In this document: piece by piece, positions 1-45,648 of the stretch | Layout of the letters: each line of letters opens with the position of its first letter | Numbering within the stretch: the first letter of the stretch is position 1 | From: Dehalococcoidia bacterium | Lineage (GTDB): Bacteria; Chloroflexota; Dehalococcoidia; Lucifugimonadales; CAJWER01 | Length of the DNA: 64,000 bases | Assembly (NCBI GenBank): GCA_965261325.1 | Contig: CBDHCU010000001.1 | Span: forward strand, 191,200 to 255,199 | Direction: 5' to 3' | Notes under the pieces: model-generated | The model's input: the letters and a program-made list of their open reading frames with translations, nothing else | Databases searched by the model: none | What the model was told of the DNA's origin: nothing | Position numbers and translations under genes: made by a program

Positions 1-168
1 TCATTCGACCTTCCCGTAGAATGCTCATCCACGCCCCGAACATACCTGTCGAGGCAGTCCTGCCTGCGCCACCCGGACTGGCACTCATTCGCACCCCTCG
101 ATATGCCAACCGCAAGTGTCCCGGACCCGCTGCAAACATCTTGAGAGTGAATTAGTTGGAGCAGATGG
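1..168 (+). mobile_element. IS4-family insertion sequence, copy A (3' end only, cut by window edge)
   Basis: Bases 1..168 match 3099..3266 of the complete copy B. They include the last ~51 transposase codons (stop at 151-153) and the right terminal inverted repeat AATTAGTTGGAGCAGATGG. Confidence 0.9.
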
Positions 169-433
169 GGTTTGAAACCCGCCCCTACAGCCGGGCACGC
201 AAACATCCCCCTCATCCCTTCGGCAAGTTCAGGGCAGGCTCCACCCCCCTCAAGACCGGGGATGGGTTCCCGCCTCCGCGGGAATGACGGCCATGCGCGC
301 GGGAATGACGGTTGTGGTGTGCAAGTTGTTGGCCCCGCTCGGCCCGGTTGGGCGGCGGGGCGGGTTCAGACCCAGATTTTGAACCGGCTGGGTCTGGGGA
401 TGCCGGCCTCGCGCATCTTGTCGAAGGGCCGCT

Positions 434-1741
434 TCATCCAGACGCTCTCGGCCTTGGGCGTGGTCCCGGGTTCGCGGGAGCGGCGGCGCTTGGGCGAAGT
501 TTTCTTCTGATAGACCTGGGGTATGCCGGGGCGTACTCCCAGATGTATTTGCCGTACGCGTCTGGGACCTCGCCTGAGATCCAGTAGCGGACTTCGTCGT
601 CTTCGTCGTTCTCCTTGTCTTTGCCGTGGAAGACGGCGGCTACCTCGTCGTATGCCTGGACGAACTTGTGGATTGGGTGGGACGGGTCGCGCTGGGCTTC
701 GGCGATCTTGCGGTCGATGTCGTAGCAGCCGCGGTGGTCGTTCGTGTCGTCTGCGTCGGCGGGGCCGGGGATGGGTTCCCGCCCCGTATCGAGTACGGGG
801 CAGGCTCTTCTCGGGAATGACGGAGCACCCTCACCCTCACCCCAGCCCTCTCCCGTCAAGGGAGAGGGGGACGGCGGGAGCCCGTCCTCATCCCCGCCGC
901 CCTGGATACCGGGTTCCGCCGGTATGACGGTCAGGTCTGCTTCGTCGGTGCTGGGGATGGGTTCCCGCTTTCGCGGGAATGACGATCCGTCGGGCGGGAA
1001 TGACCCTTCGACTGCGCTCAGGGCAGGCTCTTCGGCGGGGCTCAGGGCAGGCTCAACTGGAAGGGAGCCGGAGCGGGCGATCTCGTCGCGGGCTATGTGT
1101 CCGAGGAGCTCGCTGGCGGCATCGACCCTCTGGCGGGGCCTGAAGCCGCGGACTACGCCGTGCATGACGTGCATGAGGAAGCTGACGACGGTCTTGCCGT
1201 GGTCGGTGCTCCCGTGGACGATGCCCGTGACGCGGGGGTCGTGGGCGAGGGATGGGGCGGCGAGGGCCGAGGCGAGGTATTCGAGGGCCTCGTGGCGCGC
1301 GCGGGCGGTTTTGGCGCAGTCGGCGTCCGGCCGGGGATGGGTTCCCGTCGCCACGGGAATGACGGTGGTGTCGCCACGGGAACGACGGGTGGTGTCGCCA
1401 CTGGAACGACGGGTGGTGTCGCCACTGGAACGACGGGTGGTGTCGCCACTGGAACGACGGGTGGTGGTGTCGCGGGTGCGCTTGCGGAGTATGACGTGGT
1501 TGCATTCGAGGCCGGTGAGCTGGGCTATGTATTCGGAGACGAGCCCGGGAGCGATGGCGTGGACCTGCTCGGCGGCTTCGAGCCTGTGGCATACTTCGAA
1601 GCCGTCGTCGTTTAGCTTTCCCTCGATGACGTCGAGGTAGAAGCGGACGATGGTCTCGCCGTTGTTGGTCTCGCGGCGGACGATGTCCGCGAGTGTGGGC
1701 GGCTCGGACTGTTCGGTGTTGCGTTCTTTGTTATGGCTCAT
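434..1741 (-). CDS. IS-linked paralog P1, unknown function (C-terminal tail out of frame relative to P2/P3)
   Basis: 435-aa ORF. It is highly similar to 3464..4882 and 21715..23149 in its N-terminal, middle and C-terminal blocks. The G-run at 492-494 is one base shorter than in P2 and P3, so the conserved tail ...KRSRSREPGTTPKAESIW.KRPFDKMREAGIPRPSRFKIWV (ancestral stop at 366-368) is lost. Confidence 0.7.
   Translation of the reverse strand: MSHNKERNTEQSEPPTLADIVRRETNNGETIVRFYLDVIEGKLNDDGFEVCHRLEAAEQVHAIAPGLVSEYIAQLTGLECNHVILRKRTRDTTTRRSSGDTTRRSSGDTTRRSSGDTTRRSRGDTTVIPVATGTHPRPDADCAKTARARHEALEYLASALAAPSLAHDPRVTGIVHGSTDHGKTVVSFLMHVMHGVVRGFRPRQRVDAASELLGHIARDEIARSGSLPVEPALSPAEEPALSAVEGSFPPDGSSFPRKREPIPSTDEADLTVIPAEPGIQGGGDEDGLPPSPSPLTGEGWGEGEGAPSFPRRACPVLDTGREPIPGPADADDTNDHRGCYDIDRKIAEAQRDPSHPIHKFVQAYDEVAAVFHGKDKENDEDDEVRYWISGEVPDAYGKYIWEYAPAYPRSIRRKLRPSAAAPANPGPRPRPRASG
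1347..1468. repeat. 24-bp tandem repeat (about 5 units) inside P1, encoding TTRRSSGD octapeptides
   Basis: GTCGCCAC(G/T)GGAA(T/C)GACGG(G)TGGT is repeated head to tail. The unit is the right arm of an R1 hairpin (TTCCCGT CGCC ACGGGAA). Confidence 0.9.
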
Positions 1742-1748
1742 ACGTTCT

Positions 1749-1778
1749 ACTATGAGGGATCGGGTGGGGGTTTGTCAA
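1749..1778 (-). promoter_or_regulatory. Putative sigma70-type promoter of P1 (TTGACA, 18-nt spacer, CATAGT), start codon 7 nt after the -10
   Basis: Minus strand reads TTGACAaacccccacccgatccctCATAGTagaacgtATG. It is positionally homologous to the consensus promoter of P2. Confidence 0.5.
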
Positions 1779-1820
1779 GGGGTTGGACTTGCGATCTACA
1801 ACGACAGGGCGGGTTTAAAA

Positions 1821-3266
1821 CCATCTGCTCCAACTAATTGATAAAAAGAACCGTCCTTTCCTTTGGGTAGTCCTCCTTTGGATAGTATCAGGATAAGACT
1901 ACTCCAAAGGAGGGACAGAGCGAAATGTCCACCAGTACCGGGGACGATACAGCCACCATCGGGAGCATAGAGGAGTTTCTTCAGCAGTGTTTGAAGGACA
2001 TGGAGCCAGACCACAGTCTCAAGGGCCCTGGCAGGCCGCGCGTCCTGCCCGCAATGGCTCTGTGGGCAGGGCTGCTGGTCTGCGTCCTGAGAGGCTTCGG
2101 CAGCCAATTGGCGGTGTGGCGTCTTATCTCGGAACGCGGACTCTGGTTCTTCCCCCGATTCCCGGTTACAGACCAAGCGGTCTACAAGAGGCTCCATAGC
2201 GCGGGAACCAAGCCATTGGAGAGACTCTTCGAGCAGATCAGCGGCGTATTGGCACAACGATTGCAGGGTGTGGTAACGGAGAAGCTGGCGCCATTCGCCG
2301 AGGGCGTGGTGTGCATAGACGAGAGTACACTGGACGCCATGTCGAGAAGGCTTCCGCCTCTGAGAGAGATTCCCCAAGGCGATAGCCGTCTGCTCCCTGG
2401 CAAGCTGGCTGGCGTGTTCGACGTGAGAGGCCAGCAGTGGCGGACCGTCATGTTTCAGCCGGACCCACATCAGAACGAGAAGGTGTTGGCGCGGAAGTTG
2501 GTGGAAGACCTGCCAGCGGGAACACTGGTGGTCGCAGACTTGGGATACTTCGGCTTCGCCTGGTTCGACTGGCTCACGGACAGGGGTTACCACTGGCTGA
2601 GCAGGCTGAGAGCAAAGACCAGCTACAAGGTGATACATACCTTCTACCATCGGGGCGACGTCTTCGATGGCATCGTGTGGCTGGGAGCCCATCGCGCCGA
2701 CCGGGCCAAACACGCCGTTCGGCTGGTGACTTTCAGACAAGGCAATACGCTGCGCCGCTACATCACCAACGTTCGGGAGCCTCACACATTCCCGATTGCA
2801 TCCATGGCCGAGGTCTACGCTCGCAGGTGGGACATCGAGATGGCGCTCAAGTTGGTCAAGCAACACCTCAAGCTGCGTCTTCTGTGGTCCGCCAAGTTGG
2901 TGGTGATCCAGCAACAGATATGGGCGACGTTGATAATCTCGCAGATTCTTCAGTCGATGCGGCTTGAGATAGCCCACAGGGCCGGGGTGGACCCGTTCGA
3001 GGTGTCCATCGGCCTGCTGGTCGAGTATGCGCCACAGTATGCCTATGAAGGCAGGGACCCTGTGAAGATCTTCGTGGAGCGAGGGCGTGAGCTGGGCTTC
3101 ATTCGACCTTCCCGTAGAATGCTCATCCACGCCCCGAACATACCTGTCGAGGCAGTCCTGCCTGCGCCACCCGGACTGGCACTCATTCGCACCCCTCGAT
3201 ATGCCAACCGCAAGTGTCCCGGACCCGCTGCAAACATCTTGAGAGTGAATTAGTTGGAGCAGATGG
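1821..3266 (+). mobile_element. IS4-family insertion sequence, copy B (complete, 1446 bp)
   Basis: Perfect 19-bp terminal inverted repeats CCATCTGCTCCAACTAATT at 1821-1839 and 3248-3266 (reverse complement). It carries a single transposase ORF. Flanks are GGTTTAAAA (left) and GGTTTGAAA (right), consistent with a 9-bp target duplication. Confidence 0.9.
1925..3253 (+). CDS. IS4-family DDE transposase (442 aa)
   Basis: Candidate DDE residues lie in ...VVCIDEST..., ...LVVADLGYFGF... and ...YARRWDIEMALKLVK. The last segment fits the IS4 Y-(2)-R-(3)-E-(6)-K signature. It differs by 1 aa from the copy at 20106..21434. Confidence 0.9.
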   Translation: MSTSTGDDTATIGSIEEFLQQCLKDMEPDHSLKGPGRPRVLPAMALWAGLLVCVLRGFGSQLAVWRLISERGLWFFPRFPVTDQAVYKRLHSAGTKPLERLFEQISGVLAQRLQGVVTEKLAPFAEGVVCIDESTLDAMSRRLPPLREIPQGDSRLLPGKLAGVFDVRGQQWRTVMFQPDPHQNEKVLARKLVEDLPAGTLVVADLGYFGFAWFDWLTDRGYHWLSRLRAKTSYKVIHTFYHRGDVFDGIVWLGAHRADRAKHAVRLVTFRQGNTLRRYITNVREPHTFPIASMAEVYARRWDIEMALKLVKQHLKLRLLWSAKLVVIQQQIWATLIISQILQSMRLEIAHRAGVDPFEVSIGLLVEYAPQYAYEGRDPVKIFVERGRELGFIRPSRRMLIHAPNIPVEAVLPAPPGLALIRTPRYANRKCPGPAANILRVN

Positions 3267-3463
3267 GGTTTGAAACCCGCCCCTACAGCCGGGCACGCAA
3301 ACATCCCCCTCATCCCTTCGACAAGCTCAGGGCAGGCTCCGCCCCCCTCAAGACCGGGGATGGGTTCCCGCCTCCGCGGGAATGACGGCCATGCGCGCGG
3401 GAATGACGGTTGTGGTGTGCAAGTTGTTGGCCCCGCTCGGCCCGGTTGGGCGGCGGGGCGGGT

Positions 3464-4882
3464 TCAGACCCAGATTTTGAACCGGCTGGGTCTGGGGATG
3501 CCGGCCTCGCGCATCTTGTCGAAGGGCCGCTTCATCCAGATGCTCTCGGCCTTGGGCGTAGTCCCGGGTTCGCGGGAGCGGCTTCGCTTGGGGCGAAGTT
3601 TTCTTCTGATCGACCTGGGGTATGCCGGGGCGTACTCCCAGATGTATTTGCCGTAGGCGTCTGGGACCTCGCCTGAGATCCAGTAGCGGACTTCGTCGTC
3701 TTCGTCGTTCTCCTTGTCTTTGCCGTGGAAGACGGCGGCTACCTCGTCGTATGCCTGGACGAACTTGTGGATGGGGTGGGCCGGGTCGCGCTGGGCTTCG
3801 GCGATCTTGCGGTCTATGTCGTAGCAGCGGCGCTGTGAGTCAGTGGGCTCCGGGTCGTCTTCACCCTCACCCCAGCCCTCTCCCGTCAAGGGAGAGGGGG
3901 ACGGCGGGAGCCCGCCCTCATCCCCGCCGCCCTGGAAAGCCGGTGTGACGGTCAGGTCTGCTTCGTCGGTGCTGGGGATGGGTTCCCGCCCCGTATCGAG
4001 TACGGGGCAGGCTCTTCGCGGGAATGACGGAGCACCCTCACCCTCACCCCAGCCCTCTCCCGTCAAGGGAGAGGGGGACGGCGGGAGCCCGCCCTCATCC
4101 CCGCCGCCCTGGAAAGCCGGTGTGACGGTCAGGTCTGCTTCGTCGGTGCCGGGGATGGGTTCCCGCCTTCGCGGGAATGACGATGAAGCTGCCGGGAATG
4201 ACGGAGCACCCTCACCCTCTCCCGTCGAGGGAGAGGGGGGTACGGAGCCGGAGCGGGCGATCTCGTCGCGGGCTATGTGGCCGAGGAGCTCGCTGGCGGC
4301 ATCGACCCTCTGGCGGGGCCTGAAGCCGCGGACTACGCCGTGCATGACGTGCATGAGGAAGCTGACGACGGTCTTGCCGTGGTCGGTGCTCTCGTGGACG
4401 ATGCCGGCTACGCGCGGGTCGACGGCGAGGGATGGGGCGGCGAGGGCGGATGCGAGGTATTCGAGGGCTTCGTGGCGCGCGCGGGCGGTTTTGGCGCAGT
4501 CGGCGTCCGGCCGGGGATGGGTTCCCGTCGCCACGGGAATGACGGTGGTGTCGCCACGGGAACGACGGGTGGTGTCGTCACGGGAACGACGGGTGGCGTC
4601 GTCACGGGAATGACGGGTGGTGTCGCGGGTGCGCTTGCGGAGTATGACGTGGTTGCATTCGAGGCCGGTGAGCTGGGCTATGTATTCGGAGACGAGCCCG
4701 GGAGCGATGGCGTGGATCTGCTCGGCGGCTTCGAGCCTGTGGCAGACTTCGAAGCCTTCGTCGTTTAGCTTTCCCTCGATGACGTCGAGGTAGAAGCGGA
4801 CGATGGTCTCGCCGTTGTTGGTCTCTCGGCGGACGATGTCCGCTAGTGTGGGTGGCTCGGACTGTTCGGTGTTGTCGTACAT
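3464..4882 (-). CDS. IS-linked paralog P2, unknown function (the only apparently intact copy, 472 aa)
   Basis: I start it at ATG 4882 (MYDNTEQSEPPTLADIV...), directly behind a consensus promoter. The track ORF extends to 5191 only because it reads through MITE sequence. The N-terminal, middle and C-terminal blocks are conserved with P1 and P3. Confidence 0.75.
   Translation of the reverse strand: MYDNTEQSEPPTLADIVRRETNNGETIVRFYLDVIEGKLNDEGFEVCHRLEAAEQIHAIAPGLVSEYIAQLTGLECNHVILRKRTRDTTRHSRDDATRRSRDDTTRRSRGDTTVIPVATGTHPRPDADCAKTARARHEALEYLASALAAPSLAVDPRVAGIVHESTDHGKTVVSFLMHVMHGVVRGFRPRQRVDAASELLGHIARDEIARSGSVPPSPSTGEGEGAPSFPAASSSFPRRREPIPGTDEADLTVTPAFQGGGDEGGLPPSPSPLTGEGWGEGEGAPSFPRRACPVLDTGREPIPSTDEADLTVTPAFQGGGDEGGLPPSPSPLTGEGWGEGEDDPEPTDSQRRCYDIDRKIAEAQRDPAHPIHKFVQAYDEVAAVFHGKDKENDEDDEVRYWISGEVPDAYGKYIWEYAPAYPRSIRRKLRPKRSRSREPGTTPKAESIWMKRPFDKMREAGIPRPSRFKIWV
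3861..4165. repeat. In-frame tandem duplication (period 177 bp = 59 codons) inside the P2 linker
   Basis: CCCAGCCCTCTCCCGTCAAGGGAGAGGGGGACGGCGGGAGCCCGCCCTCATCCCCGCCGCCCTGGAAAGCCGGTGTGACGGTCAGGTCTGCTTCGTCGGTGC.GGGGATGGGTTCCCGCC occurs from 3871 and again from 4048. Confidence 0.85.
4527..4622. repeat. 24-bp tandem repeat (4 units) inside P2
   Basis: Same unit as 1347..1468 but a different copy number and sequence variants (TTRHSRDD/ATRRSRDD/TTRRSRGD). Confidence 0.85.
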
Positions 4883-4889
4883 GGGTTCT

Positions 4890-4917
4890 ATTATAGGGGT
4901 AAATGGAGGGTTGTCAA
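4890..4917 (-). promoter_or_regulatory. Consensus sigma70-type promoter of P2 (TTGACA, 16-nt spacer, TATAAT), ATG 7 nt after the -10 (leaderless-type)
   Basis: Minus strand reads cacTTGACAaccctccatttaccccTATAATagaacccATGtacgac. Confidence 0.6.
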
Positions 4918-5000
4918 GTGGGATTTTCAGCCAAGAGGGCACGGAGGGGGAAGTTTTGAGTTTTGGGGGAGAGTTTCGGGAGAGAGGAGTTACGCAAGTT

Positions 5001-5100
5001 ATACCAATTTGGCGTGATGCCGCCGTATATGTGCGGCCAGGGAGTGGGTTCCCGCCTTCGCGGGAATGACGGCCAATTTGGCGTGATGCCGCCATATAGG
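5001..5100 (+). repeat. MITE1-related rearranged copy with short-loop R1 core
   Basis: ATACCAATTTGGCGTGATGCCGCCGTATATGTGCGGCCAGGGAGTGGGTTCCCGCCTTCGCGGGAATGACGG is followed by a direct repeat of CCAATTTGGCGTGATGCCGCCATATA. Confidence 0.7.
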
Positions 5101-5111
5101 GGCTGAAAGAG

Positions 5112-5225
5112 CAGGGCCTTTCCAAAGTCCGTTCGTGGTGAGCCTGTCGAACCACAATTGGGGCCTTCGACAAGCTCAGGCCGAACGGCAAGGTACGACC
5201 CTATCTCAACAATGGAAAGGCCCTG
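5112..5225 (+). mobile_element. MITE4 copy a (114 bp, 13-bp perfect TIR CAGGGCCTTTCCA)
   Basis: Near-identical to 30951..31063 (inverted), 41670..41783 and 53014..53127. Confidence 0.85.
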
Positions 5226-5340
5226 GCGCCAAACGCGTCCGGTAGCATGACCGGCTGTTTGATTGTAGAATGGTGCCGCTTCCGGCGATGGACCATCGCG
5301 GTCGTCGATCGGGGCAATACGGCAGGCAGGCTAGGTCGTC

Positions 5341-6108
5341 ATGAAAAGAGCATATGGATTGTTCGTATTCCTTGTCGCCCTTCTCGCTGTGGGTGCCTTC
5401 GCCGCGTGCGGATCGGGCGAAGAGGAGGCCGTGGAGCCGACGGGCATAGCGAGCACCGCGGCGGAGAAGACAGCGGCCGCTGCACCGGCCGACACGCCGG
5501 TTACGAGACGGACGCCTGTACCTGCACCCAAGGAGCCCGCAGTGCGAATGAAGCAGTACGACAGCTATCCCGCCATGACGATAGATCCCGACAAGTCCTA
5601 CACCGCCACCTTCGAACTGGAGAAGGGCGGTCAGTTCGAGGTCGAGCTCTACGCCAAAGAGGCCCCGAAGACCGTCAACAGCTTCGTTTTCCTGGCGCGG
5701 GACGGCTTCTACGACGGCGTAACCTTCCACCGCGTCATCGAGGGATTCATGGCACAGGGAGGCGACCCCACGGGGACTGGCTCCGGAGGCCCGGGCTACA
5801 GCTTCGAAAACGAGGTGAGCCTCGAGCGCAGGCACGATGCCCCTGGGACCCTGTCGATGGCGAACTCGGGCGGCAGCGCCTCGAACGGAAGCCAGTTCTT
5901 CATCACATTCATACCCACACCCTTCCTGGATGGCTATGAAGCGGACGGCACTGCCAAGGACTGCTCCCAGCGGGGCGTGTCCTGCCATACGGTGTTCGGC
6001 CGCGTAGTCGACGGCATTGATGTCGTCAACTCGATCTCCCTCCGCGACCCGGCCACGTCGAGGACGCCGGGCGATGCCATCAAGACGATCACGATCACCG
6101 AGGAGTAG
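5341..6108 (+). CDS. Peptidyl-prolyl cis-trans isomerase, cyclophilin type, lipoprotein
   Basis: FHRVIEGFMAQGGDPTGTGSGGPGYSFENE motif. N-terminal signal with a lipobox-like LLAVGAFAACGSG. Confidence 0.9.
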   Translation: MKRAYGLFVFLVALLAVGAFAACGSGEEEAVEPTGIASTAAEKTAAAAPADTPVTRRTPVPAPKEPAVRMKQYDSYPAMTIDPDKSYTATFELEKGGQFEVELYAKEAPKTVNSFVFLARDGFYDGVTFHRVIEGFMAQGGDPTGTGSGGPGYSFENEVSLERRHDAPGTLSMANSGGSASNGSQFFITFIPTPFLDGYEADGTAKDCSQRGVSCHTVFGRVVDGIDVVNSISLRDPATSRTPGDAIKTITITEE

Positions 6109-6150
6109 CGGTTCGCCGCGGGACACGGGCACACTGCGGAGAACTAAAGA

Positions 6151-6179
6151 GGGGGACCGCCCGCAATGGGCGGTCCCCC
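6151..6179. terminator. Putative bidirectional intrinsic terminator between convergent genes
   Basis: Perfect 12-bp stem GGGGGACCGCCC / GGGCGGTCCCCC with a 5-nt loop. It lies between the cyclophilin stop (6108) and the stop of the minus-strand gene (6216), with A/T-enriched flanks. Confidence 0.6.
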
Positions 6180-6215
6180 TGCCTTTGATGGACTTCGGTT
6201 AGTGCGAGCGCTGCG

Positions 6216-8399
6216 TCAGTCCGCGCTGGCTCCCTCGGGCAGGCTAGGCGGCATCATCAGGAATGTGTAGAGCTTGCCGTGCGCGCCTATCCACGTCCTG
6301 TTCTGTACGACAGCCCTGTCGACCAGCGGCTGGTTGTTGACGCGCACAGTCGACTGGCTGCTCTTACCCCTGTGTACGTGTATGGCGCCTCCGGAGAACC
6401 TGAAGGCTACGTTCTCGAGCCCGGGTATGCCGATCTCTGCGCCCCTCACGTAGCTCCTGCGGAAGATGGCGACAAGCGGATTCCGCCTGATAGCCGAAAA
6501 GTCCACGAGTCGCTCTTCCCTGTCGCCGTATATGTACCCGTATGGCCGCGTCTGGAGGAGGAAGTAGACGCCAACGCCACCCGCAATTGCCAGCAGAGGT
6601 ACTACCAGCAGGCCGAGCCACTGGAAGGACGCTGGGTCCTGGACTGTGACCGCCGGTACGGGCTGGGCTGCGGCGGGCTGGGCTGCGGCGGGCTGCGCGG
6701 CAACGGCCGGCTGCACAGCGGCGGCAGGCTGTACGGCGGGCTTCTCGACTGGCGGGACGACGACCGGAGCCTGTGCAACCCCCGACCGTAGTACGATCAT
6801 CTCTGAGAGCTTGGAGAACGTAGCCCCGCCGAACTCGGCCGTCAGCTGTATGGCGACGGAGTACGTCCCAGGCTCGGAGACGGTCAGGAATACGTCGTAC
6901 TCCCATGCCGGGCCCTCTCCGAACAGGCTCCTCGCGACGACCTCCACTTCGGTTTCCGCACCCGGGGCCCCGTTTACGATTGGGATAACGGCTTCGTGGG
7001 GGACAGAGTACGGCGCGCTGTCGATGTGGACCAGTACGTTGGCGACGTGTGTCCTCTCACCAGGCACCAGGTCATCCACATCGAGGGCGTCCACCAGGAC
7101 GCTCGGGTACCTCTCTGCATGGAAGCTCTCGAACGACATGAGGCTGTGGTTGAACTCGGCCCACGAAAGCTCGAGCTGGACCTTATACTCCCCTGCCGAG
7201 GACAGGGACGGCAGCGCGATTGAGTACAAGCCGTCTCCTGCGACCTGATCGGGGCCGGTCCCATCGTCGCGCATCTCGAGTTTCATCATGGCTTCGTCAG
7301 GAGTCGCCACCCTCGCAATTACCTGAACGTTGTCGAGCTTGACCAGGCGATCATCCTCCGAGATGTAAGCCACCATGGAGTATGGCTCGCCCAGGGGCAC
7401 CGTACCGATTGGTTGCAGGAATATCGTGTAAGAGTTGATCGAGTAGTCCCACACTGAAACGTTGCCGTCTATACCCCTCCCTGTGACCTTCCAGTGGCCG
7501 GGTACCGGGTCCTGTATTTCCCAGACGATGGCGTTGGGCGACTCGTCTATCCTGTACGTGGTGCGCTCTTCAGATATGGCGAAGCCGGTGGGGTCGCTGA
7601 GCTGGAACGAGCCCTGTGCCGAGTCTCTGAAGATGAGGATTGTCGCGTTGCTCGTGCCCGGTGCAACGCTGACGACCGAGCTCATGATCTCCATGGGAGC
7701 CAGCGTCCTTCTACCGATCTCAGCCAACATCCCTCGCGCCTGGAGACCCAGCACGTGGTCGGCGGCTGCAGACAGCCCTGCGTACGTGGTCAGGTCCACC
7801 ATACGACCTCCGGATGCTGCCGAAGCCTCGTCGAGGAAGCTCTTTGCGGAGTCCGGCGCACCCGGCAGGCTGACCCCGTTGAGGCTCCAGCCCTGCTCCG
7901 CCAGTTTCGCGACCAGTGGTCCGACGCTGGAAGAGAGACTATCGAAGTCGTTCTGAGGCGAGTCCCCGACCAGCAGGTAGATGCTGGACCCCTCCGCCGC
8001 GCGCTCCTCGATAAGGGCCGCGTGAGTCTCAGACAGCGCCTTCTCCAGGCCGTCCGACCGGATAGTGACCGGCCACCGCAGAATGGCGTCGAAGTCCGCC
8101 CGCACCTGATTGTAGGCGGGATCGGTAGGCCGGTATGGACCGACGAAGTGAGTTGAGTCGTCGGTGACCATGAGCATGACCAGCTCATCGCTCTGGAGAG
8201 TGTCGAGCAGGCTCACGAAAGAGACCGCAAGATCTGCCGCAGCCTCCGATGAACGTGCCGAGATGCCGTCGACCACGATAGTGGTAATCGGTCGCGAGAA
8301 GGCCGAGTCGGCCGAAACGTCCTGGGCCGCAGCCCATTGCGTGCCGGCGAAGAGGGCCAAGAGTAGGATGAGGATTGCGGAACGCCTGACTTTTTCCAT
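6216..8399 (-). CDS. Secreted/membrane protein: signal peptide, vWA-like domain, Pro/Ala repeat, TM helix, C-terminal FHA-like domain
   Basis: I start it at the second ATG (8399), which follows GGAGG. The architecture is read from the sequence: ILILLLALFAGTQWAAAQD signal; TIVVDG...LLVGDS vWA-like segment; PAAAVQPAVAAQPAAAQPAAAQP; TM helix LLVVPLLAIAGGVGVYFLL; and the tail ...VRVNNQPLVDRAVVQNRTWIGAHGKLYTF. Confidence 0.7.
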   Translation of the reverse strand: MEKVRRSAILILLLALFAGTQWAAAQDVSADSAFSRPITTIVVDGISARSSEAAADLAVSFVSLLDTLQSDELVMLMVTDDSTHFVGPYRPTDPAYNQVRADFDAILRWPVTIRSDGLEKALSETHAALIEERAAEGSSIYLLVGDSPQNDFDSLSSSVGPLVAKLAEQGWSLNGVSLPGAPDSAKSFLDEASAASGGRMVDLTTYAGLSAAADHVLGLQARGMLAEIGRRTLAPMEIMSSVVSVAPGTSNATILIFRDSAQGSFQLSDPTGFAISEERTTYRIDESPNAIVWEIQDPVPGHWKVTGRGIDGNVSVWDYSINSYTIFLQPIGTVPLGEPYSMVAYISEDDRLVKLDNVQVIARVATPDEAMMKLEMRDDGTGPDQVAGDGLYSIALPSLSSAGEYKVQLELSWAEFNHSLMSFESFHAERYPSVLVDALDVDDLVPGERTHVANVLVHIDSAPYSVPHEAVIPIVNGAPGAETEVEVVARSLFGEGPAWEYDVFLTVSEPGTYSVAIQLTAEFGGATFSKLSEMIVLRSGVAQAPVVVPPVEKPAVQPAAAVQPAVAAQPAAAQPAAAQPVPAVTVQDPASFQWLGLLVVPLLAIAGGVGVYFLLQTRPYGYIYGDREERLVDFSAIRRNPLVAIFRRSYVRGAEIGIPGLENVAFRFSGGAIHVHRGKSSQSTVRVNNQPLVDRAVVQNRTWIGAHGKLYTFLMMPPSLPEGASAD

Positions 8400-8550
8400 A
8401 TGAAACCTCCACATAGTAACAGGCTAGCCGCAACCCCGAATATTAGTCAACCATGTTCTATCCAAAGTTTTGACTTTGTTCGAACTCTCGACCCCGGCCG
8501 GTCCGAGCTCCAGCTTCCTAATCTGAAGATTCCCTATTTTGTTGTGTGAG

Positions 8551-8694
8551 CCCAGATCCACCACCTAATTTGGACGGATGGCGTGACGGACTGCCTCTGA
8601 GGCTATGGCTGTGCACCTTGCCGGGGATGGGTTCCCGCCCCCGACTGCTCGGGGGCAGGCTCTTCGCGGGAATGACGGAGGTGGGGGATCTGGG
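8551..8694 (+). mobile_element. MITE2 copy a (144 bp, TIR CCCAGATCC(C)CCACC)
   Basis: Near-identical to 23200..23343 and 58168..58311. It carries a long-form R1 core with inner hairpin CCCCCGACTGCTCGGGGG. Flanked by TGAG on both sides. Confidence 0.85.
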
Positions 8695-8750
8695 TGAGTT
8701 TCTCACGTTGAATCCGTGCTGCCGTTCCGATACAGTACGATACAGTACAG

Positions 8751-13694: not shown

Positions 13695-14822
13695 ATGATG
13701 AAAATGGCGAAGTATGTCGTGGTCTTTGGGGCTGTGTTGGCTATGGTTGCGGCCATCGCCTGCTCCGACGGCGTGTCCCAGTCGGACTACGATGCGCTCC
13801 AGGCCGAGTTGGATGCCGCCAATGCCATGGGCGGGGAGATGATGGGAAGCCGCCTCGACACGGTCAAGCAGCGCGGCAAGGTCATATGCGCCAGCCGCAA
13901 CGACGTGCCGGGCTATGGCTCTCTCGACGCAGCCGGTAACAACGTTGGGTTCGACATCGACCTCTGCCACGCGCTTGCGGCGGCAGTCCTGGGGGACCCC
14001 AACGCCATCGATATCCGGCTGATCACGGCCGCAGAGCGCGGCCCCACGATCCAGTCGGGCGAGGTGGACATGCTCGTGCGCACGGTCACCTGGACCACTT
14101 CGCGCGACGCCTCCTGGGGCAATTACGCCCAGACGATGTTCTACGACGGCCAGGGCTTCATGGTCCCGGCGAAGCTGGGCGTCACGAGCGCCTATGAGCT
14201 CGGCGGGGCTGCCGTCTGCGTGACCGCGGGCACAACCACCGAGCTGAACATGGCCGACTTCTTCCGGCAGAACGGGCTGGAATACAACCCCAAGGTCTAC
14301 GAGGACACCGATATCGTTCTGGAGTCCTACAAGAGCGGCTCCTGCGACGTGTTCACGAACGACCGTTCGCAGCTCGCCGCGCTTCGCAGCGCTCTGCCCA
14401 ATCCCGAGGAGCACATAATCCTGCCGGAGACGATCTCCGAGGAGCCCCTTGGCCCGGTTGTGCCTCACGGTGACGATCAGTGGTTTGACATCGTGAAGAC
14501 CGTGATGAGCATACTCATCTACGGCGAGGCATACGGCATAAACTCGGGCAACGTGGACGCAATGGCCACCGGCGACAACGTGAAGGCAAAGCGTCTGCTC
14601 GGTACCGAGGGTTCCTTGGGCCAGGAGGAGATCGGTCTCGACAAGAACGTCGGCCAGACCATAATCAAGGCCGTGGGCAACTACGGCGAGATATATGAGC
14701 GCAACCTCGGAGCGGGCGGCATCGACCTGCCCCGCGAGGGCGGCCGGAACGCGCTCTGGTCCGACGCTCCCTGCTCCGATTGTCCTAAGGGCGGGCAGAT
14801 CTACGCTGCGCCTCTGAGATAG
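13695..14822 (+). CDS. aapJ: Amino-acid ABC transporter substrate-binding lipoprotein (AapJ/BztA-like), copy 1
   Basis: Lipobox AIACSDG. It has a paralog at 14874..15983 and is followed by two ~400-aa permeases and an ATPase. GGAGGAGG RBS. Confidence 0.8.
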   Translation: MMKMAKYVVVFGAVLAMVAAIACSDGVSQSDYDALQAELDAANAMGGEMMGSRLDTVKQRGKVICASRNDVPGYGSLDAAGNNVGFDIDLCHALAAAVLGDPNAIDIRLITAAERGPTIQSGEVDMLVRTVTWTTSRDASWGNYAQTMFYDGQGFMVPAKLGVTSAYELGGAAVCVTAGTTTELNMADFFRQNGLEYNPKVYEDTDIVLESYKSGSCDVFTNDRSQLAALRSALPNPEEHIILPETISEEPLGPVVPHGDDQWFDIVKTVMSILIYGEAYGINSGNVDAMATGDNVKAKRLLGTEGSLGQEEIGLDKNVGQTIIKAVGNYGEIYERNLGAGGIDLPREGGRNALWSDAPCSDCPKGGQIYAAPLR

Positions 14823-14873: not shown

Positions 14874-15983
14874 ATGTTCCGAGCTGACTGCAGTTCTATT
14901 GCGGCTGTGAGTCTCATTTTGGCTCTGGCAGCGCTTGTTGCCTGCTCAGACGGGAATGGCGAGCCCGATGCGGGCTCTGCCGGGGCAGCAGACGCGAAGA
15001 CCGAGAATTCGCGCCTGGGCGCTGTCCGAGCTCGCGGCCGTGTCGTCTGCGCCGCCGTTACCGACACGCCGGGGTTCGGCTTCCTGGACGAGACGGGCAG
15101 GACCACCGGATTCGACATCGACCTCTGCCGCGCGGTGGCGGCCGCCGTCCTGGGTGACGCCGACGCCATCGAAGTGCGGGTGATCACCGCCACCGAGCGC
15201 GGCCCCATTCTCCAGTCGGGCGAAGTGGACATGCTGGTGTTCATCACCACATGGACGACCTCCCGGGACACCTACTGGGGCAACTTCGTTCAGACCATGT
15301 TCTACGACGGCCAGGGCTTCATGGCGCCGGCAAGCCTGGGGGTCGAAAGCTCGTACGGGCTCGGTGGCGCATCGGTGTGCGTCACCAGCGGCACCACGAC
15401 CGAGTTGAACATGGCCGACTTTTTCAGGCAGAACAACCTGGAGTATGGCGCCAAGGTCTTCGAAGAGTCGCAGGTGGCTTTGGAGGCGTACGGGAGCGGC
15501 GCCTGCGACGCGTTCACCAGCGACCGTTCGTCCCTCACCGCCCTGCGCAGCACCCTCGCCAATCCGCAGGACCACGTCATCTTGCCGGAGACCATCTCCG
15601 AGGAGCCGCTTGGACCCGTCGTGCCCCACGGCGACGAGCAGTGGTTCGACATCGTGAAGGCCGTCATGGGCATGCTCATCTATGCCGAGGCCTACGGCGT
15701 CCACTCGGGCAACGTGGACGCTATGGCCGCCAGCGACGACGTGAAGGTGAAGCGCCTGCTGGGCACCGAGGGGGCCTTCGGCCAGGAGGGGCTTGGGCTG
15801 GACCCGGAGGTGGGCCAGACGGTCATCGAGGCTGTGGGCAACTACGGCCAGATATACGACCGCCACTTTGGGCCGGGCGGCATAGACCTGCCCCGCGAGG
15901 GAAGCCGGAACGCGCTGTGGGCCGCCGCTCCCTGCTCCGATTGTCCGAAGGGCGGGCAGATCTACGCCGCTCCCCTGCGCTAG
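14874..15983 (+). CDS. aapJ: Amino-acid ABC transporter substrate-binding lipoprotein (AapJ/BztA-like), copy 2
   Basis: Clear paralog of 13695..14822 (for example ...WTTSRD..WGN..QTMFYDGQGFM..., and it ends ...CPKGGQIYAAPLR). Confidence 0.8.
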   Translation: MFRADCSSIAAVSLILALAALVACSDGNGEPDAGSAGAADAKTENSRLGAVRARGRVVCAAVTDTPGFGFLDETGRTTGFDIDLCRAVAAAVLGDADAIEVRVITATERGPILQSGEVDMLVFITTWTTSRDTYWGNFVQTMFYDGQGFMAPASLGVESSYGLGGASVCVTSGTTTELNMADFFRQNNLEYGAKVFEESQVALEAYGSGACDAFTSDRSSLTALRSTLANPQDHVILPETISEEPLGPVVPHGDEQWFDIVKAVMGMLIYAEAYGVHSGNVDAMAASDDVKVKRLLGTEGAFGQEGLGLDPEVGQTVIEAVGNYGQIYDRHFGPGGIDLPREGSRNALWAAAPCSDCPKGGQIYAAPLR

Positions 15984-19715: not shown

Positions 19716-19914
19716 GAGGCCGGAGCCGGAGCAGCGATGTGGGGAGGGCCTGGACCAGGCGACTATCTCCAGAAGTGCTTCGACAAGCTCAGCACGAGCG
19801 GGACTATACAAGGATTGTTCGCCCTGAGCCTGTCGAAGGGCAGTTCTCCGCCGATACAGGTGACTGTGAGATAACCCCCTAGGCGTCTGGAATCGGCCCA
19901 CTGCCTTCGGTGCT

Positions 19915-20039
19915 GACCGGACGGTGCCGCGCTGGGCCTTGTACAGGCGGAATATCAGCCGGGATATGGTCGTCTTGCCGCTCCCGGTGCGTTGGTCACC
20001 CCCAACGTATTCCCGCCGGGTTGTCTCTTGCACAACCAA
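19915..20039 (-). pseudogene. Possible relic of an ABC-exporter ATPase (Walker A region only)
   Basis: Minus-strand translation ...GGDQRTGSGKTTISRLIFRLYKAQRGTV resembles an ABC Walker A block. It has no upstream or downstream continuation and is bounded by repeats and IS copy C. Confidence 0.25.
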
Positions 20040-20092
20040 GTCCCGGTGTCAGTCGGCCCGCCTAGCCGGGTGGGCAGAGGGCGGGTTTGAAA

Positions 20093-21538
20093 CCATCTGC
20101 TCCAACTAATTCACTCTCAAGATGTTTGCAGCGGGTCCGGGACACTTGCGGTTGGCATATCGAGGGGTGCGAATGAGTGCCAGTCCGGGTGGCGCAGGCA
20201 GGACTGCCTCGACAGGTATGTTCGGGGCGTGGATGAGCATTCTACGGGAAGGTCGAATGAAGCCCAGCTCACGCCCTCGCTCCACGAAGATCTTCACAGG
20301 GTCCCTGCCTTCATAGGCATACTGTGGCGCATACTCGACCAGCAGGCCGATGGACACCTCGAACGGGTCCACCCCGGCCCTGTGGGCTATCTCAAGCCGC
20401 ATCGACTGAAGAATCTGCGAGATTATCAACGTCGCCCATATCTGTTGCTGGATCACCACCAACTTGGCGGACCACAGAAGACGCAGCTTGAGGTGTTGCT
20501 TGACCAACTTGAGCGCCATCTCGATGTCCCACCTGCGAGCGTAGACCTCGGCCATGGATGCAATCGGGAATGTGTGAGGCTCCCGAACGTTGGTGATGTA
20601 GCGGCGCAGCGTATTGCCTTGTCTGAAAGTCACCAGCCGAACGGCGTGTTTGGCCCGGTCGGCGCGATGGGCTCCCAGCCACACGAGGCCATCGAAGACG
20701 TCGCCCCGATGGTAGAAGGTATGTATCACCTTGTAGCTGGTCTTTGCTCTCAGCCTGCTCAGCCAGTGGTAACCCCTGTCCGTGAGCCAGTCGAACCAGG
20801 CGAAGCCGAAGTATCCCAAGTCTGCGACCACCAGTGTTCCCGCTGGCAGGTCTTCCACCAACTTCCGCGCCAACACCTTCTCGTTCTGATGTGGGTCCGG
20901 CTGAAACATGACGGTCCGCCACTGCTGGCCTCTCACGTCGAACACGCCAGCCAGCTTGCCAGGGAGCAGACGGCTATCGCCTTGGGGAATCTCTCTCAGA
21001 GGCGGAAGCCTTCTCGACATGGCGTCCAGTGTACTCTCGTCTATGCACACCACGCCCTCGGCGAATGGCGCCAGCTTCTCCGTTACCACACCCTGCAATC
21101 GTTGTGCCAATACGCCGCTGATCTGCTCGAAGAGTCTCTCCAATGGCTTGGTTCCCGCGCTATGGAGCCTCTTGTAGACCGCTTGGTCTGTAACCGGGAA
21201 TCGGGGGAAGAACCAGAGTCCGCGTTCCGAGATAAGACGCCACACCGCCAATTGGCTGCCGAAGCCTCTCAGGACGCAGACCAGCAGCCCTGCCCACAGA
21301 GCCATTGCGGGCAGGACGCGCGGCCTGCCAGGGCCCTTGAGACTGTGGTCTGGCTCCATGTCCTTCAAACACTGCTGAAGAAACTCCTCTATGCTCCCGA
21401 TGGTGGCTGTATCGTCCCCGGTACTGGTGGACATTTCGCTCTGTCCCTCCTTTGGAGTAGTCTTATCCTGATACTATCCAAAGGAGGACTACCCAAAGGA
21501 AAGGACGGTTCTTTTTATCAATTAGTTGGAGCAGATGG
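20093..21538 (-). mobile_element. IS4-family insertion sequence, copy C (complete, 1446 bp, inverted relative to copies A/B)
   Basis: Same 19-bp TIRs as copy B. Both flanks read TTTGAAACC on the + strand (= TTTCAAACC on the IS sense strand), consistent with a 9-bp target duplication inside GGGCGGGTTTGAAACCCGCCC. Confidence 0.9.
20106..21434 (-). CDS. IS4-family DDE transposase (442 aa)
   Basis: Differs from 1925..3253 by one residue (DGLVWLG versus DGIVWLG). Confidence 0.9.
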   Translation of the reverse strand: MSTSTGDDTATIGSIEEFLQQCLKDMEPDHSLKGPGRPRVLPAMALWAGLLVCVLRGFGSQLAVWRLISERGLWFFPRFPVTDQAVYKRLHSAGTKPLERLFEQISGVLAQRLQGVVTEKLAPFAEGVVCIDESTLDAMSRRLPPLREIPQGDSRLLPGKLAGVFDVRGQQWRTVMFQPDPHQNEKVLARKLVEDLPAGTLVVADLGYFGFAWFDWLTDRGYHWLSRLRAKTSYKVIHTFYHRGDVFDGLVWLGAHRADRAKHAVRLVTFRQGNTLRRYITNVREPHTFPIASMAEVYARRWDIEMALKLVKQHLKLRLLWSAKLVVIQQQIWATLIISQILQSMRLEIAHRAGVDPFEVSIGLLVEYAPQYAYEGRDPVKIFVERGRELGFIRPSRRMLIHAPNIPVEAVLPAPPGLALIRTPRYANRKCPGPAANILRVN

Positions 21539-21714
21539 GGTTTGAAACCCGCCCCTACAGGCGGGAACGCAAACATCCCCCTCATCCCTTCGACAAGCTC
21601 AGGGCAGGCTCCACCTTCTCCCGCCAGGGGAGAAGGGGCAAGAGGCCGCCCGGCGATCTGAGCTGGCTGACATTGTGTTGGCCCCGCTTGGCCCGGTTGG
21701 ACGGCGGGGCGGGT

Positions 21715-23149
21715 TCAGACCCAGATTTTGAACCGGCTGGGTCTGGGGATGCCGGCCTCGCGCATCTTGTCGAAGGGCCGCTTTATCCAGATGCTCTCGG
21801 CCTTGGGCGTAGTCCCGGGTTCGCGGGAGCGGCGGCGCTTGGGGCGAAGTCGTCTTCGGATCGACTTGGGATATGCCGGGGCGTACTCCCAGATGTATTT
21901 GCCGTACGCGTCTGGGACCTCGCCGGAGATCCAGTAGCGGACTTCGTCGTCTTCGTCGTTCTCCTTGTCTTCGCCATGGAAGGCGGCGGCCACCTCGTCG
22001 TATGCCTGGACGAACTTGTGGATTGGGTGGGCCGGGTCGCGCTGGGCTTCTGCGATTTTGCGGTCGATGTCGTAGCAGCCGCGGTCGGGGTCGGTGAGCT
22101 CCGGGTCGTCTTCTTCGGCGGGGCCGGGGATGGGGATGGATTCCCGCGAAGGCGGGAATGACGATTCGGTTGCGGTTGCAGTGTGCGGATCGTCTGCGTT
22201 GGCGGTGCTGGGGATGGGTTCCCGCCCCGTATCGAGTACGGGGCAGGCTCTTCGCGGGAATGACGGAGCACCCTCACCCTCACCCCAGCCCTCTCCCGTC
22301 AAGGGAGAGGGGGACGGCGGGAGCCCGTCCTCATCCCCGCCGCCCTGGAAAGCCGGTGTGACGGTCAGGTCTGCTTCGGCGGGGGCGGGGATGGGTTCCC
22401 GCTTTCGCGGGAATGACGGTGCGGCCTCACCCTCACCCTCACCCTCTCCCGTCGAGGGAGAGGGGGGTACGGAGCCGGAGCGGGCTAGCTCGTCGCGGGC
22501 TATGTGTCCGAGGGAGCTCGCTGGCGGCATCGACCCTCTGGCGGGGCCTGAAGCCGCGGACTACGCCGTGCATGACGTGGAGCAGGAAGCTGACGACGGT
22601 CTTGCCGTGGTCGGTGCTCCCGTGGACGATGCCGGCGACGCGGGGGTCGTGGGCAAGGGATGGGGTGGCGAGGGCCGAGGCGAGGTATTCGAGGGCTTCG
22701 TGGCGCGCACGGGCGGTTTTGGCGCAGTCGGCGTCCGACCGGGGATGGGTTCCCGTCGCCACGGGAATGACGGTGGTGTCGCCACGGGAACGACGGGTGG
22801 TGTCGCCACGGGAACTACCGGTGGTGTCGTCACGGGAACTACCGGTGGTGTCGTCACGGGAACTACCGGTGGTGTCGCGGGTGCGCTTGCGGAGTATGGC
22901 GTGGTTGCATTCGAGGCCGGTGAGCTGGGCTATGTATTCGGAGACGAGGCCGGGTGCGATGGCGTGGATCTGCTCGGCGGCTTCGAGCCTGTGGCAGACT
23001 TCGAAGCCGTCGTCGTTTAGCTTTCCCTCGATGACGTCGAGGTAGAAGCGGACGATGGTCTCGCCGTTGTTGGTTTCGCGGCGGACGATGTCCGCTAGTG
23101 TGGGTGGCTCGGACTGTTCGGTGTTGCGTCGTTTGTTCTTATGGCTCAT
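21715..23149 (-). pseudogene. IS-linked paralog P3, frameshifted mid-gene
   Basis: Two overlapping ORFs (22439..23149 and 21715..22530) together reproduce the P1/P2 architecture. An extra G in the run at 22512-22514 (CCGAGGGAGCTC versus CCGAGGAGCTC in P1 and P2) breaks the frame at ...AASEL|LGHIARDE. Confidence 0.75.
22755..22873. repeat. 24-bp tandem repeat (about 5 units) inside P3
   Basis: The units encode TTGSSRDD/TTGSSRGD/TTRRSRGD. Same position as in P1 and P2 but with different unit variants. Confidence 0.85.
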
Positions 23150-23156: not shown

Positions 23157-23186
23157 ACTATGAGGGATCGGGTGGGGGTTTGTCAA
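23157..23186 (-). promoter_or_regulatory. Putative promoter of P3 (TTGACA ... CATAGT), identical to the P1 promoter
   Basis: Same sequence as 1749..1778. Homology with the other copies ends just beyond the -35, where MITE2 copy b begins. Confidence 0.5.
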
Positions 23187-23199
23187 GGGGGATTTTTCA

Positions 23200-23343
23200 C
23201 CCAGATCCACCACCTAATTTGGACGGATGGCGTGACGGACTGCCTCTGAGGCTATGGCTGTGCACCTTGCCGGGGATGGGTTCCCGCCCCCGACTGCTCG
23301 GGGGCAGGCTCTTCGCGGGAATGACGGCGGTGGGGGATTTGGG
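23200..23343 (+). mobile_element. MITE2 copy b (144 bp)
   Basis: Near-identical to 8551..8694 and 58168..58311. Confidence 0.85.
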
Positions 23344-23357
23344 TCCCCTGCCTCTCC

Positions 23358-23386
23358 TTGACTGTTTCCATAGCCAAGCCTAATAA
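23358..23386 (+). promoter_or_regulatory. Candidate promoter upstream of pheS (TTGACT, 17-nt spacer, TAATAA)
   Basis: cTTGACTgtttccatagccaagccTAATAAt lies about 45 nt upstream of the pheS ATG. Confidence 0.35.
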
Positions 23387-23430
23387 TTGATTGGTGCTGC
23401 TACTCTCTCCGTGCCAGATCGACGTGTCCC

Positions 23431-24486: not shown

Positions 24487-24524
24487 AGAAAGCGCCCGAA
24501 CGCAGCGGGACTCAGGTTCTATAG

Positions 24525-26951: not shown

Positions 26952-26961
26952 GGAGGCCTTA

Positions 26962-27216
26962 GTGGTAACTAAAGAGGAGCTTCACAGCTTATTGGAGTCG
27001 CTGCCTGATTCGGGGCTCGAGCAGGTCCACAGCCTGATGGTTGTGCTCCTTCAGGAGTTCGAGGACCTGACTGAGGATGACGCGAAAGAATTGAGGGAAG
27101 GCGAGGCCGAAGTAGAACGAGGGGAATGGGTGTGGTGGAAAGACGTTCAGCGAGAGGATGTAGGAGGTACGACTGGCCCGCCGTGCGGAACGTTACTACC
27201 GTCGGGTGGATCGTGA
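26962..27216 (+). CDS. Putative type II antitoxin (small acidic protein upstream of the RelE/ParE gene)
   Basis: GTG start 5 nt after GGGAGG. The 84-aa acidic protein (…EDLTEDDAKELREGEAEVERGEW…) sits immediately upstream of, and overlaps, a RelE/ParE-like ORF. The family is not identified. Confidence 0.5.
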   Translation: MVTKEELHSLLESLPDSGLEQVHSLMVVLLQEFEDLTEDDAKELREGEAEVERGEWVWWKDVQREDVGGTTGPPCGTLLPSGGS

Positions 27217-27412: not shown

Positions 27413-27467
27413 CTCCTGTTCGTGAGCAGAATTGGTAGAGCACGTACACCGTCACAAGCACGAGTCG

Positions 27468-28727: not shown

Positions 28728-28781
28728 CCTACCCCGGGAAACAAGGCGCAAACCAAGCAGTAGCAGAGGGACCTGGAAAAT

Positions 28782-29231: not shown

Positions 29232-29270
29232 TCCGCAACTGAACCCAGCGGCGGCTACCCTGTCCCGATT

Positions 29271-29933: not shown

Positions 29934-29934
29934 G

Positions 29935-31063: not shown

Positions 31064-31071
31064 GAGCCCGG

Positions 31072-41665: not shown

Positions 41666-41669
41666 CATC

Positions 41670-45607: not shown

Positions 45608-45648
45608 GATGAAGGGCGAGACGTACGCTTTTTTCAGAGGAATGACGA

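Follow-up and report, generated by a model that had tools for sequence, protein, structure and literature searches.

P1, P2 and P3 of a Dehalococcoidia genome belong to a lineage-restricted multigene family encoding an undescribed modular protein with repeat-derived linkers

The window analyzed here, a 64,000-nucleotide stretch of a Dehalococcoidia bacterium contig (CBDHCU010000001.1, positions 191,200 to 255,199), carries three related minus-strand genes, P1, P2 and P3, together with copies of an insertion sequence (IS) and numerous dispersed repeats, among them repetitive extragenic palindromic (REP) sequences and transposable elements of the miniature inverted-repeat type (MITEs). A preliminary description of this DNA had reported three minus-strand paralogs with three conserved blocks, only P2 being intact. 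All three genes lie where it placed them, and the blocks, which we call N, M and C, were recovered as the conserved parts of a 108-sequence family alignment. In P2, block N spans approximately residues 6-87, block M 124-212 and block C 350-472, with linkers at 88-123 and 213-349; when the DNA of the three genes was aligned, the blocks were near-identical and indels occurred only between them. P1 has lost one nucleotide (context 487-502), which shifts its C-terminal frame so that the open reading frame (ORF) stops at 434, and P3 has gained one (context 22506-22520), which leaves two ORFs of 236 and 271 amino acids. P0001, the database protein identical to P2, is encoded on a 454-kb NCBI/ENA contig.

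The claim that these are true protein-coding paralogs was borne out by their patterns of substitution. In the minus-strand frame, P2 and P3 differ with a synonymous divergence (dS) of 0.13 and a non-synonymous divergence (dN) of 0.026, a dN/dS ratio of 0.20. The N and M blocks gave a ratio of 0.17 for both P1-P2 and P1-P3, and 12 copies from two genomes gave ratios of 0.15-0.4, with a median of about 0.36. Because synonymous changes outnumber non-synonymous ones, the minus-strand frame is the selected one, and it is under purifying selection. The preliminary description had staked its proposal on this frame being the conserved one, and the same frame is kept in relatives at 30-40% identity.

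Table 1. Positions of the P genes, their expression signals, linker repeats and adjoining mobile elements in the window
Feature	Coordinates	Strand	Description
P2	3464..4882	-	sole intact copy, 472 amino acids; read as an ORF; identical to database protein P0001
P1	366..1741	-	pseudogene, from DNA alignment; called ORF 434..1741; ancestral stop 366-368
P3	21715..23149	-	pseudogene, from DNA alignment; split into ORFs 22439..23149 and 21715..22530
P2 promoter	4890..4917	-	TTGACA, N16, TATAAT; 12/12 match to sigma-70 consensus; ATG 7 nt after -10
P1 promoter	1749..1778	-	TTGACA, N18, CATAGT; ATG 7 nt after -10
P3 promoter	23157..23186	-	TTGACA, N18, CATAGT; ATG 7 nt after -10
GC-rich hairpin	3429..3463	-	ACCCGCCCCGCCGCCCAACCGGGCCGAGCGGGGCC, directly 3' of P2 stop; -25.4 kcal/mol, z=-2.4
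24-nt tandem repeat in P2	4527..4626	-	linker 1; 8 codons, DTTRRSRG-like, in frame
24-nt array in P1	1347-1466	-	same repeat; 4-5 copies each in P1-P3
24-nt array in P3	22755-22878	-	same repeat; 4-5 copies
Linker 2 of P2	3779..4185	-	modules with REP/MITE core (repeat family D1)
IS copy 2	1823..3265	+	transposase gene 1925..3253; 17-bp terminal repeats ATCTGCTCCAACTAATT
12-bp duplications around IS copy 2	1811-1822, 3266-3277		GGGTTTAAAACC and GGGTTTGAAACC, respectively
IS copy 1	1..166	+	right end, cut by window edge; palindrome half at 168-185
IS copy 3	20095..21537	-	inverted relative to copies 1 and 2; in REP palindrome behind P3
12-bp duplications around IS copy 3	20083-20094, 21538-21549		GGGTTTGAAACC
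146-nt MITE	23199..23344	.	terminal repeats CCCAAATCCCCCACC / GGTGGTGGATCTGGG; 13 nt upstream of P3 -35; family D7
Second MITE type	5111..5225	.	ends ATACCAATT...TTGGTAT; about 200 nt upstream of P2 promoter; D9/I4

The genes share a compact arrangement of expression signals. All 14 full copies, comprising the three in the window, nine in a metagenome-assembled genome (MAG) and two on ENA contigs, carry TTGACA, a spacer of 16-18 nt, a -10 box resembling (C/T)AT(A/G)(A/T)T, exactly 7 nt and then the ATG. Within positions 1-5400 of the window, the promoters of P1 and P2 were the only promoter-like sites. Since the ATG follows the -10 box by 7 nt, and given the usual distance from a -10 box to the transcription start, the mRNA is predicted to be leaderless. 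This promoter arrangement with its leaderless start recurs in a distant paralog (L015) and apparently in another (L014), if the start of the latter is an ATG downstream of the called one. At the other end of the gene, a hairpin is found in 12 of 13 full-length copies examined, and family-wide homology stops approximately 45 nt past the stop codon, with the hairpin marking the 3' end of the conserved unit. Each copy is a monocistronic unit running from promoter to hairpin, and the consensus promoter and a copy number of approximately 20 suggest that the protein is probably made in large amounts.

An A-rich tract (TGAAAAAYT) resembling an UP element is retained by many copies upstream of the -35 box, and some also have GCCCTCTGCG. 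The promoter region of P2 reads GCCCTCTGCGnTGAAAA; in other copies, a MITE replaces the DNA upstream of the -35 box. Homology between copies had been said to end right after the -35 box. Homology between P2 and P3 runs approximately 12 nt beyond that box. The combined motif GCCCTCTGCG(N)TGAAAA, which may be an operator or an UP element, occurs upstream of the -35 box in P2 (~4925-4950), L003, L005, L011 and L014, including one paralog with only ~35% protein identity. A short likeness of the promoter A-tract and the 3' end to MITE ends was considered as a candidate pair of terminal inverted repeats of the unit; it is absent from most copies, and we rejected it.

Blocks N and M had looked like an internal duplication, and they are one: BLASTP within P2 aligned them with E=2e-5, and hhalign of the two repeat profiles gave a probability of 99.8% (E=1.9e-29). 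An exhaustive profile search of 1.84 billion representatives, with a cut-off of E ≤ 0.001, matched 339 proteins. Beyond the close family most of these share two stretches, which correspond to blocks N and M. The relatives are hypothetical proteins of 250-500 residues, the few with a source name being labelled Chloroflexi/Chloroflexota, and they contain two or three tandem copies of a motif of approximately 50 residues, LAxIVRxxTxxGxxIVxFLxDVMxGxxxGFKPxHRxxAAKELLxxGF. Long low-complexity regions follow, and then unrelated C-termini. P0149 and P0158 are among the few relatives that also keep a diverged block C, and in P0234, a distant relative outside the window, two modules are fused to an Mrr-type restriction-endonuclease domain that replaces the P-type C-terminal domain.

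An AlphaFold model of N and M based on a deeper alignment had a mean predicted local distance difference test score (pLDDT) of 79 and a predicted template modelling score of 0.65; residues 10-70 and 170-200, each forming three helices, scored above 93. The model of full-length P2 (mean pLDDT 52.8) has disordered linkers and a block C with a few helices, predicted with moderate confidence, and no strands. Several acidic residues of block C are invariant in the family alignment. The C-terminal domain is family-specific, acidic, aromatic and helical and is followed by a basic tail; linker 1 is rich in arginine.

The preliminary description had recognized no described family, and neither did we. 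Searching P2 against Pfam returned only DUF6894 (E=0.1; 13 bits, with a cut-off of 24), and against PHROGs and NCBIfam there was no match. Pfam searches found no family in ten distant relatives and no recurrent family in 114 relatives; a profile search of PDB sequences gave nothing but noise at E=2.2, and Foldseek comparison of the predicted structure with PDB and BFVD found nothing below E=3. A vague resemblance to small DNA-binding proteins of phages and mobile elements had also been suggested. A faint likeness to small phage proteins surfaced in the relatives, where weak matches to three PHROG families, all of unknown function, recurred (phrog_6694 in 56, phrog_15261 in 38 and phrog_21661 in 21 of the 114) and 12 of the 114 matched phrog_641, a terminase small subunit (best E=7e-4, profile positions ~86-131 of 162), but not in P2 itself. 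HEAT_2 was matched by seven of the 114 (best E=0.0016); a HEAT-like repeat protein was rejected as an identification, the matches being below threshold and a designed armadillo repeat protein appearing only at a Foldseek E of 9.8. Both the module and the P family are therefore undescribed. The module is widespread in Chloroflexota and confidently modelled by AlphaFold, with no structural or sequence match.

The size of the family greatly exceeds the three members originally counted. A search with all three blocks returned 193 protein clusters (at 90% identity); the best 120 of the 193 all had E < 1e-99, none was named or had a Pfam domain, and many share the same long contigs. Twenty ORFs on five NCBI/ENA contigs (454, 381, 763, 1434 and 1509 kb) cluster with one another at 88-97% identity. 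From their shared sources and this mutual clustering we infer that the five contigs belong to the genome of the window, which would then hold ~20 copies. Among 185,579 GTDB species representatives, only one carries the P family, the MAG CBDCTY01 from Dehalococcoidia, whose 10 loci, nine of them full copies and the tenth a fragment, are spread over 4.3 Mb; the single non-P stretch of DNA that it has in common with the window is 95.5% identical. No P relative was found in 50,697 phage genomes or in plasmids by tblastn, or in IMG/VR by scanning. P1-P3 are members of a lineage-restricted multigene family, which is one subfamily of the proteins with this module and has been amplified to ~20 self-contained, leaderless and apparently strongly expressed genes per genome. 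Such genes are liable to be mis-annotated as many unrelated hypothetical proteins, and they break short-read assemblies: contig L012 stops 20 nt upstream of pheS. The PheS representative P0376 is encoded on a contig that begins at pheS.

Neighboring genes differ at every P locus and include ABC transporters, pheST, restriction-modification genes and ribosomal protein genes. Apart from L012 and L013, no P loci from different genomes were syntenic. We rejected a conserved gene neighborhood, as the ABC permease genes that recur near several loci are members of a large paralog family.

Both linkers are built largely from repeats. In linker 1, the 24-nt array (nine copies of the repeat in one homolog) is followed by a REP hairpin read as VIPVATGTHP. 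The modules of linker 2 are translated in frame as SFPRRREPIP, PLTGEGWGEGE and SFPRRACPVLDTGREPIP, and in P2 this linker includes an in-frame tandem duplication of 177 nt (59 codons). Segments of linker 2 are 95-98% identical to intergenic DNA at 45549-45609, 42407-42463, 55000-55055, 57933-57984, 53262-53318 and 35387-35434, among others, and further intergenic copies match linker DNA at 84-88% identity. The window contains 45 occurrences of the core motif GTCRTTCCCGYG, where 2.2 would be expected. Linker length varies widely between homologs with the reading frame kept, and within one P protein the same hairpin is found in two different reading frames, which fits independent insertions. The linker 2 modules are true copies of the genome's dispersed repeats.

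Palindromic elements of Rickettsia are likewise inserted in frame in protein-coding genes (PMC10969869). What P shares with these and other in-frame MITEs is a dispersed palindromic repeat that is translated inside an ORF, with the frame kept and the host protein under selection; in P, intergenic copies of the repeat are present at six or more sites, and both frame and selection are retained. The Rickettsia elements are single insertions in many unrelated genes, whereas here many modules, in two frames and two linkers, have entered one multicopy family. Each module is a short hairpin core of ~30-60 nt, REP-like, that larger MITEs also contain, and the host is a Dehalococcoidia lineage. The linkers are a clear example outside Rickettsia of palindromic repeats built into protein linkers. 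A literature search on the repeat peptides found nothing.

A second P locus allowed the history of one copy to be followed. L013, part of a 5.4-Mb ENA contig, is collinear with window positions 23200-30948 at 93.8% identity and has a P gene upstream of pheS; P3 is the positional ortholog of this gene. The flanking orthologs pheS and pheT have diverged by dS 0.17-0.20, and P3 differs from its L013 ortholog by dS 0.31 but from P1 or P2 by only 0.10-0.13. More generally, every copy assigned to this genome finds its best match within the genome (88-97% identity) and matches copies elsewhere at only 73-86%; by contrast, some pairs of copies shared between the MAG and a 4.3-Mb genome are 91-94% identical. 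Because P3 is closer to its paralogs in the genome than to its positional ortholog, the comparison indicates concerted evolution, presumably by non-allelic gene conversion and perhaps with lineage-specific amplification. Under gene conversion, homology would end at the limits of the shared functional unit. What had been called a discrete, repeatedly copied module is better described as a promoter-to-terminator expression unit that gene conversion would keep alike: P3 has a positional ortholog yet is closer to its paralogs in the genome, and no terminal repeats or target duplications of the unit were seen at the junctions inspected.

Duplicated tuf genes and rRNA operons behave similarly, in that paralogs within a genome are closer than positional orthologs and homology stops at the functional unit. 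They differ from the P genes, which have ~20 copies, encode a protein with no assigned function, are frequently pseudogenes and carry hypervariable linkers.

Several details of these loci are recorded here. Relative to window positions 23190-23200, L013 carries an additional ~800 nt (5980-6793) that includes a DUF6226 gene and separates the P promoter from the MITE lying upstream of pheS. Synteny between the window and L013 ends just left of the IS target (~19900-20010), placing the P3 locus at a rearrangement breakpoint. L010 (6001-6468) is a fragment of P that retains only the C-terminal block, its last codons joined to the right end of a MITE, and bases AGGTGGTGGATC have apparently been inserted there into AAAATCTGGG.

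Our best guess is that P is a highly expressed adaptor protein that binds nucleic acid. The tandem three-helix modules would form a recognition unit for nucleic acid or another target, most likely nucleic acid, and the variable C-terminus would serve as an effector or oligomerization part. We suggest a recognition unit because the C-termini are swappable, one of them carrying a nuclease, and because linker 1 is arginine-rich and the tail basic. The linkers would tolerate repeat insertions as mere spacers, and non-allelic gene conversion together with repeat-mediated duplication, rather than transposition encoded by the unit itself, would maintain the high copy number. To the whole picture of an expression unit, a modular protein, repeat linkers, an incidental IS and concerted evolution, together with the proposed function, we assign a probability of roughly 0.55; its descriptive parts are much more secure. 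The surrounding phenomena each have precedents, in concerted multigene families, in-frame palindromes, REP-targeting IS and leaderless genes.

A number of observations weigh against this interpretation. The Foldseek searches lend nucleic-acid binding no direct support, the weak HEAT_2 matches would fit a protein-protein interaction module equally well, and the Mrr fusion is known from one protein. High expression is deduced from the promoter sequence only. Of the 14 full copies, four carry disruptions (in P1, P3, L004 and at the end of L013), and L010 is a fragment, so single copies are dispensable, as they would be in a selfish element. In addition, L001 and L003, which are 97-98% identical, lose upstream homology a few nucleotides before the -35 box, a loss that gene conversion would explain but does not prove.

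One alternative is that the unit of ~1.3-1.6 kb is an autonomous mobile element, with P as its transposase or recombinase, the modules binding its ends and the acidic C-terminal domain being catalytic. We consider this improbable. In its favor, each genome has 10-20 copies scattered through intergenic DNA that is full of MITEs, IS and restriction-modification genes, some copies are frameshifted or truncated, and copies cluster by genome, as after a burst; the unit also extends from promoter to ~45 nt past the stop, like many IS, and block C has its invariant acidic residues. Yet Pfam and NCBIfam detected no transposase or recombinase domain (DDE, HUH, serine or tyrosine), and the few helices and lack of strands in the model of block C, itself of moderate confidence, are unlike an RNase-H fold. 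No terminal inverted repeats or target duplications were seen at the 14 junction pairs inspected, where the flanks are overwritten by MITEs, and the 5' limit of the unit is not sharp, lying near -60 in some copies and cut by a MITE in others. Copies differ by dS 0.09-0.4, unlike active IS, which are near-identical. P3 has kept its locus since a split marked by a flanking dS of ~0.2, and at P3/L013, the sole locus that could be compared, both genomes have the gene. Distant relatives have different C-termini, and their genes are flanked by housekeeping genes.

A self-propagating gene is a further possibility, to which we give little credence. P would recognize REP/MITE hairpins through its modules and promote its own copying, perhaps also that of the repeats, by recombination or gene conversion. 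Such a gene would explain why there are so many copies and why they form genome-specific clades, why repeats lie within and beside the genes, and why the MITE stops at nearly the same spacing from the promoter. If true, P would be the Chloroflexota counterpart of REP-associated transposases, on an unrelated fold.

P might also be a host or selfish factor that binds REP/MITE hairpins, analogous to REP-associated transposases or REP-binding proteins, and this too we judge unlikely. REP/MITE modules occupy the linkers and both flanks of most copies, superfamily members from other genomes also have REP-derived linkers, in 4 of 12 copies the DNA between the end of one MITE type and the -35 box downstream of it measures 13-14 nt, and in a fifth 7 nt, and the palindrome targeted by the IS is enriched behind P genes. 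All of this is purely correlative, and a repeat-rich genome would put repeats in any tolerant linker or intergenic gap. There is no Pfam match to HUH/Y1, and the conserved histidines of P form HxxH, not HUH. REPs with this core presumably also occur in phyla without the P family, which we count against such a role. Were P to handle repeats, it would bear on how REPs and MITEs are maintained in bacteria without known REP transposases.

That the P genes are prophage remnants, with the module a DNA-packaging domain of small-terminase type, is very unlikely and already largely refuted. The recurrent matches of relatives to phrog_6694, phrog_15261, phrog_21661 and phrog_641 reflect a shared short helical motif (FLxxVMxG ... 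HRxxAAKELLxRGF) of weak significance; those to phrog_641 span ~35-45 of its 162 positions, P2 itself falls below detection, no phage genes lie beside any P locus, and the phage, IMG/VR and plasmid collections held no relative. Unlike in a terminase small subunit, the motif here is partial and its module is in tandem and fused to long disordered regions. Finally, the notion that the long ORFs are artefacts, GC-rich repeat DNA open by chance and not one gene, can be dismissed: REP sequences are open in most frames and long plus-strand ORFs do overlap, but the minus-strand frame is under purifying selection, the blocks are conserved down to 30% identity across 339 representatives, the fold prediction is confident, and in intact copies a single reading frame runs through linkers whose indels come in multiples of three.

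The IS beside the P genes is a secondary matter. P genes stop ~180-200 bp from the 17-bp terminal repeat of the same IS, whose ends facing P1, P2 and P3 are at 166, 3264 and 21536, in agreement with the ~200 bp, 3' end toward the IS, of the preliminary description; the IS next to P3 is inverted relative to the other two. Its transposase matches PF01609 (E=4.5e-19) and NF033592 (140.6 bits against a cut-off of 115). The element was inserted at the center of the palindrome GGGCGGGTTTSAAACCCGCCC, duplicating the 12 bp GGGTTT(G/A)AAACC, and in L013 the same P locus has this palindrome uninterrupted, an empty site without the IS. Its model score, 17-bp terminal repeats, 12-bp duplication (9-13 bp expected) and empty site place it in the IS4 family.

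The label "IS-linked" did not hold up. This IS is missing from all 10 MAG loci and from L011 and L013, and its association with P is incidental, arising because the REP palindrome into which the IS inserts is often found on the 3' side of P genes. Of 15 P copies, 9 have the GGGCGGGTTTSAAACCCGCCC palindrome 100-250 nt behind them; elsewhere in the ~265 kb covered, it is found seven more times. All three canonical palindromes in the window are occupied by the IS; variant palindromes AGGCGGGTTTCAAACCCGCCT and GGGCTGGTTTCAAACCAGCCC, at 34029-34049 and 63809-63829, have no IS.

REPs are documented as targets of IS (PMC1525189). Like IS1397, ISKpn1 and ISPpu9/10, the element described here inserts site-specifically into a REP palindrome in either orientation, and unlike them it belongs to the IS4 family and duplicates 12 bp of the palindrome center. 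The REP-targeting IS of which we are aware are of the IS3 or IS110 family. Here, a REP-targeting IS4-family element is documented with both occupied and empty sites.

Two MITE types recur around the P genes. The 146-nt MITE upstream of P3 limits the upstream homology of that copy; it is also found at 8550-8695 and 58167-58312, the window copies being 98-99% identical. In P3, L001, L008 and L009 the right end of this MITE is separated from the -35 box downstream of it by 13-14 nt; the distance is 7 nt in L007 and larger in L004, and the filler bases between MITE and -35 box differ each time. The spacing may mean that the MITE prefers the promoter A-tract as a target, or that conversion tracts end there. 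The second MITE type is also present at 53023-53137, 30951-31064 (inverted) and 41669-41783, with three window copies 100% identical. In L008, where it is nested in the first type, TA flanks it, suggesting an origin like that of Tc1/IS630.

The REP core is also part of a 139-nt repeat family (D5) at 37662-37800, 42355-42493, 53210-53348 and 54947-55085. The REP core GTCATTCCCGCG is strongly biased in orientation: outside the P genes, the minus strand has 17 exact copies and the plus strand 2 (for example at 5059, 8665, 23314, 31137, 35421, 37757, 42450, 45595, 53305, 55042, 57971, 58282 and 63662), and GC skew is positive along the entire plus strand. All three P genes have the same orientation as the REP repeats. 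An orientation tied to the direction of replication would fit spreading based on single-stranded DNA.

A search of the whole window with Rfam found three tRNAs only. The window also contains two adjacent paralogous genes, at 13695-14822 and 14874-15983, which are 74% identical over 300 nt (D8).

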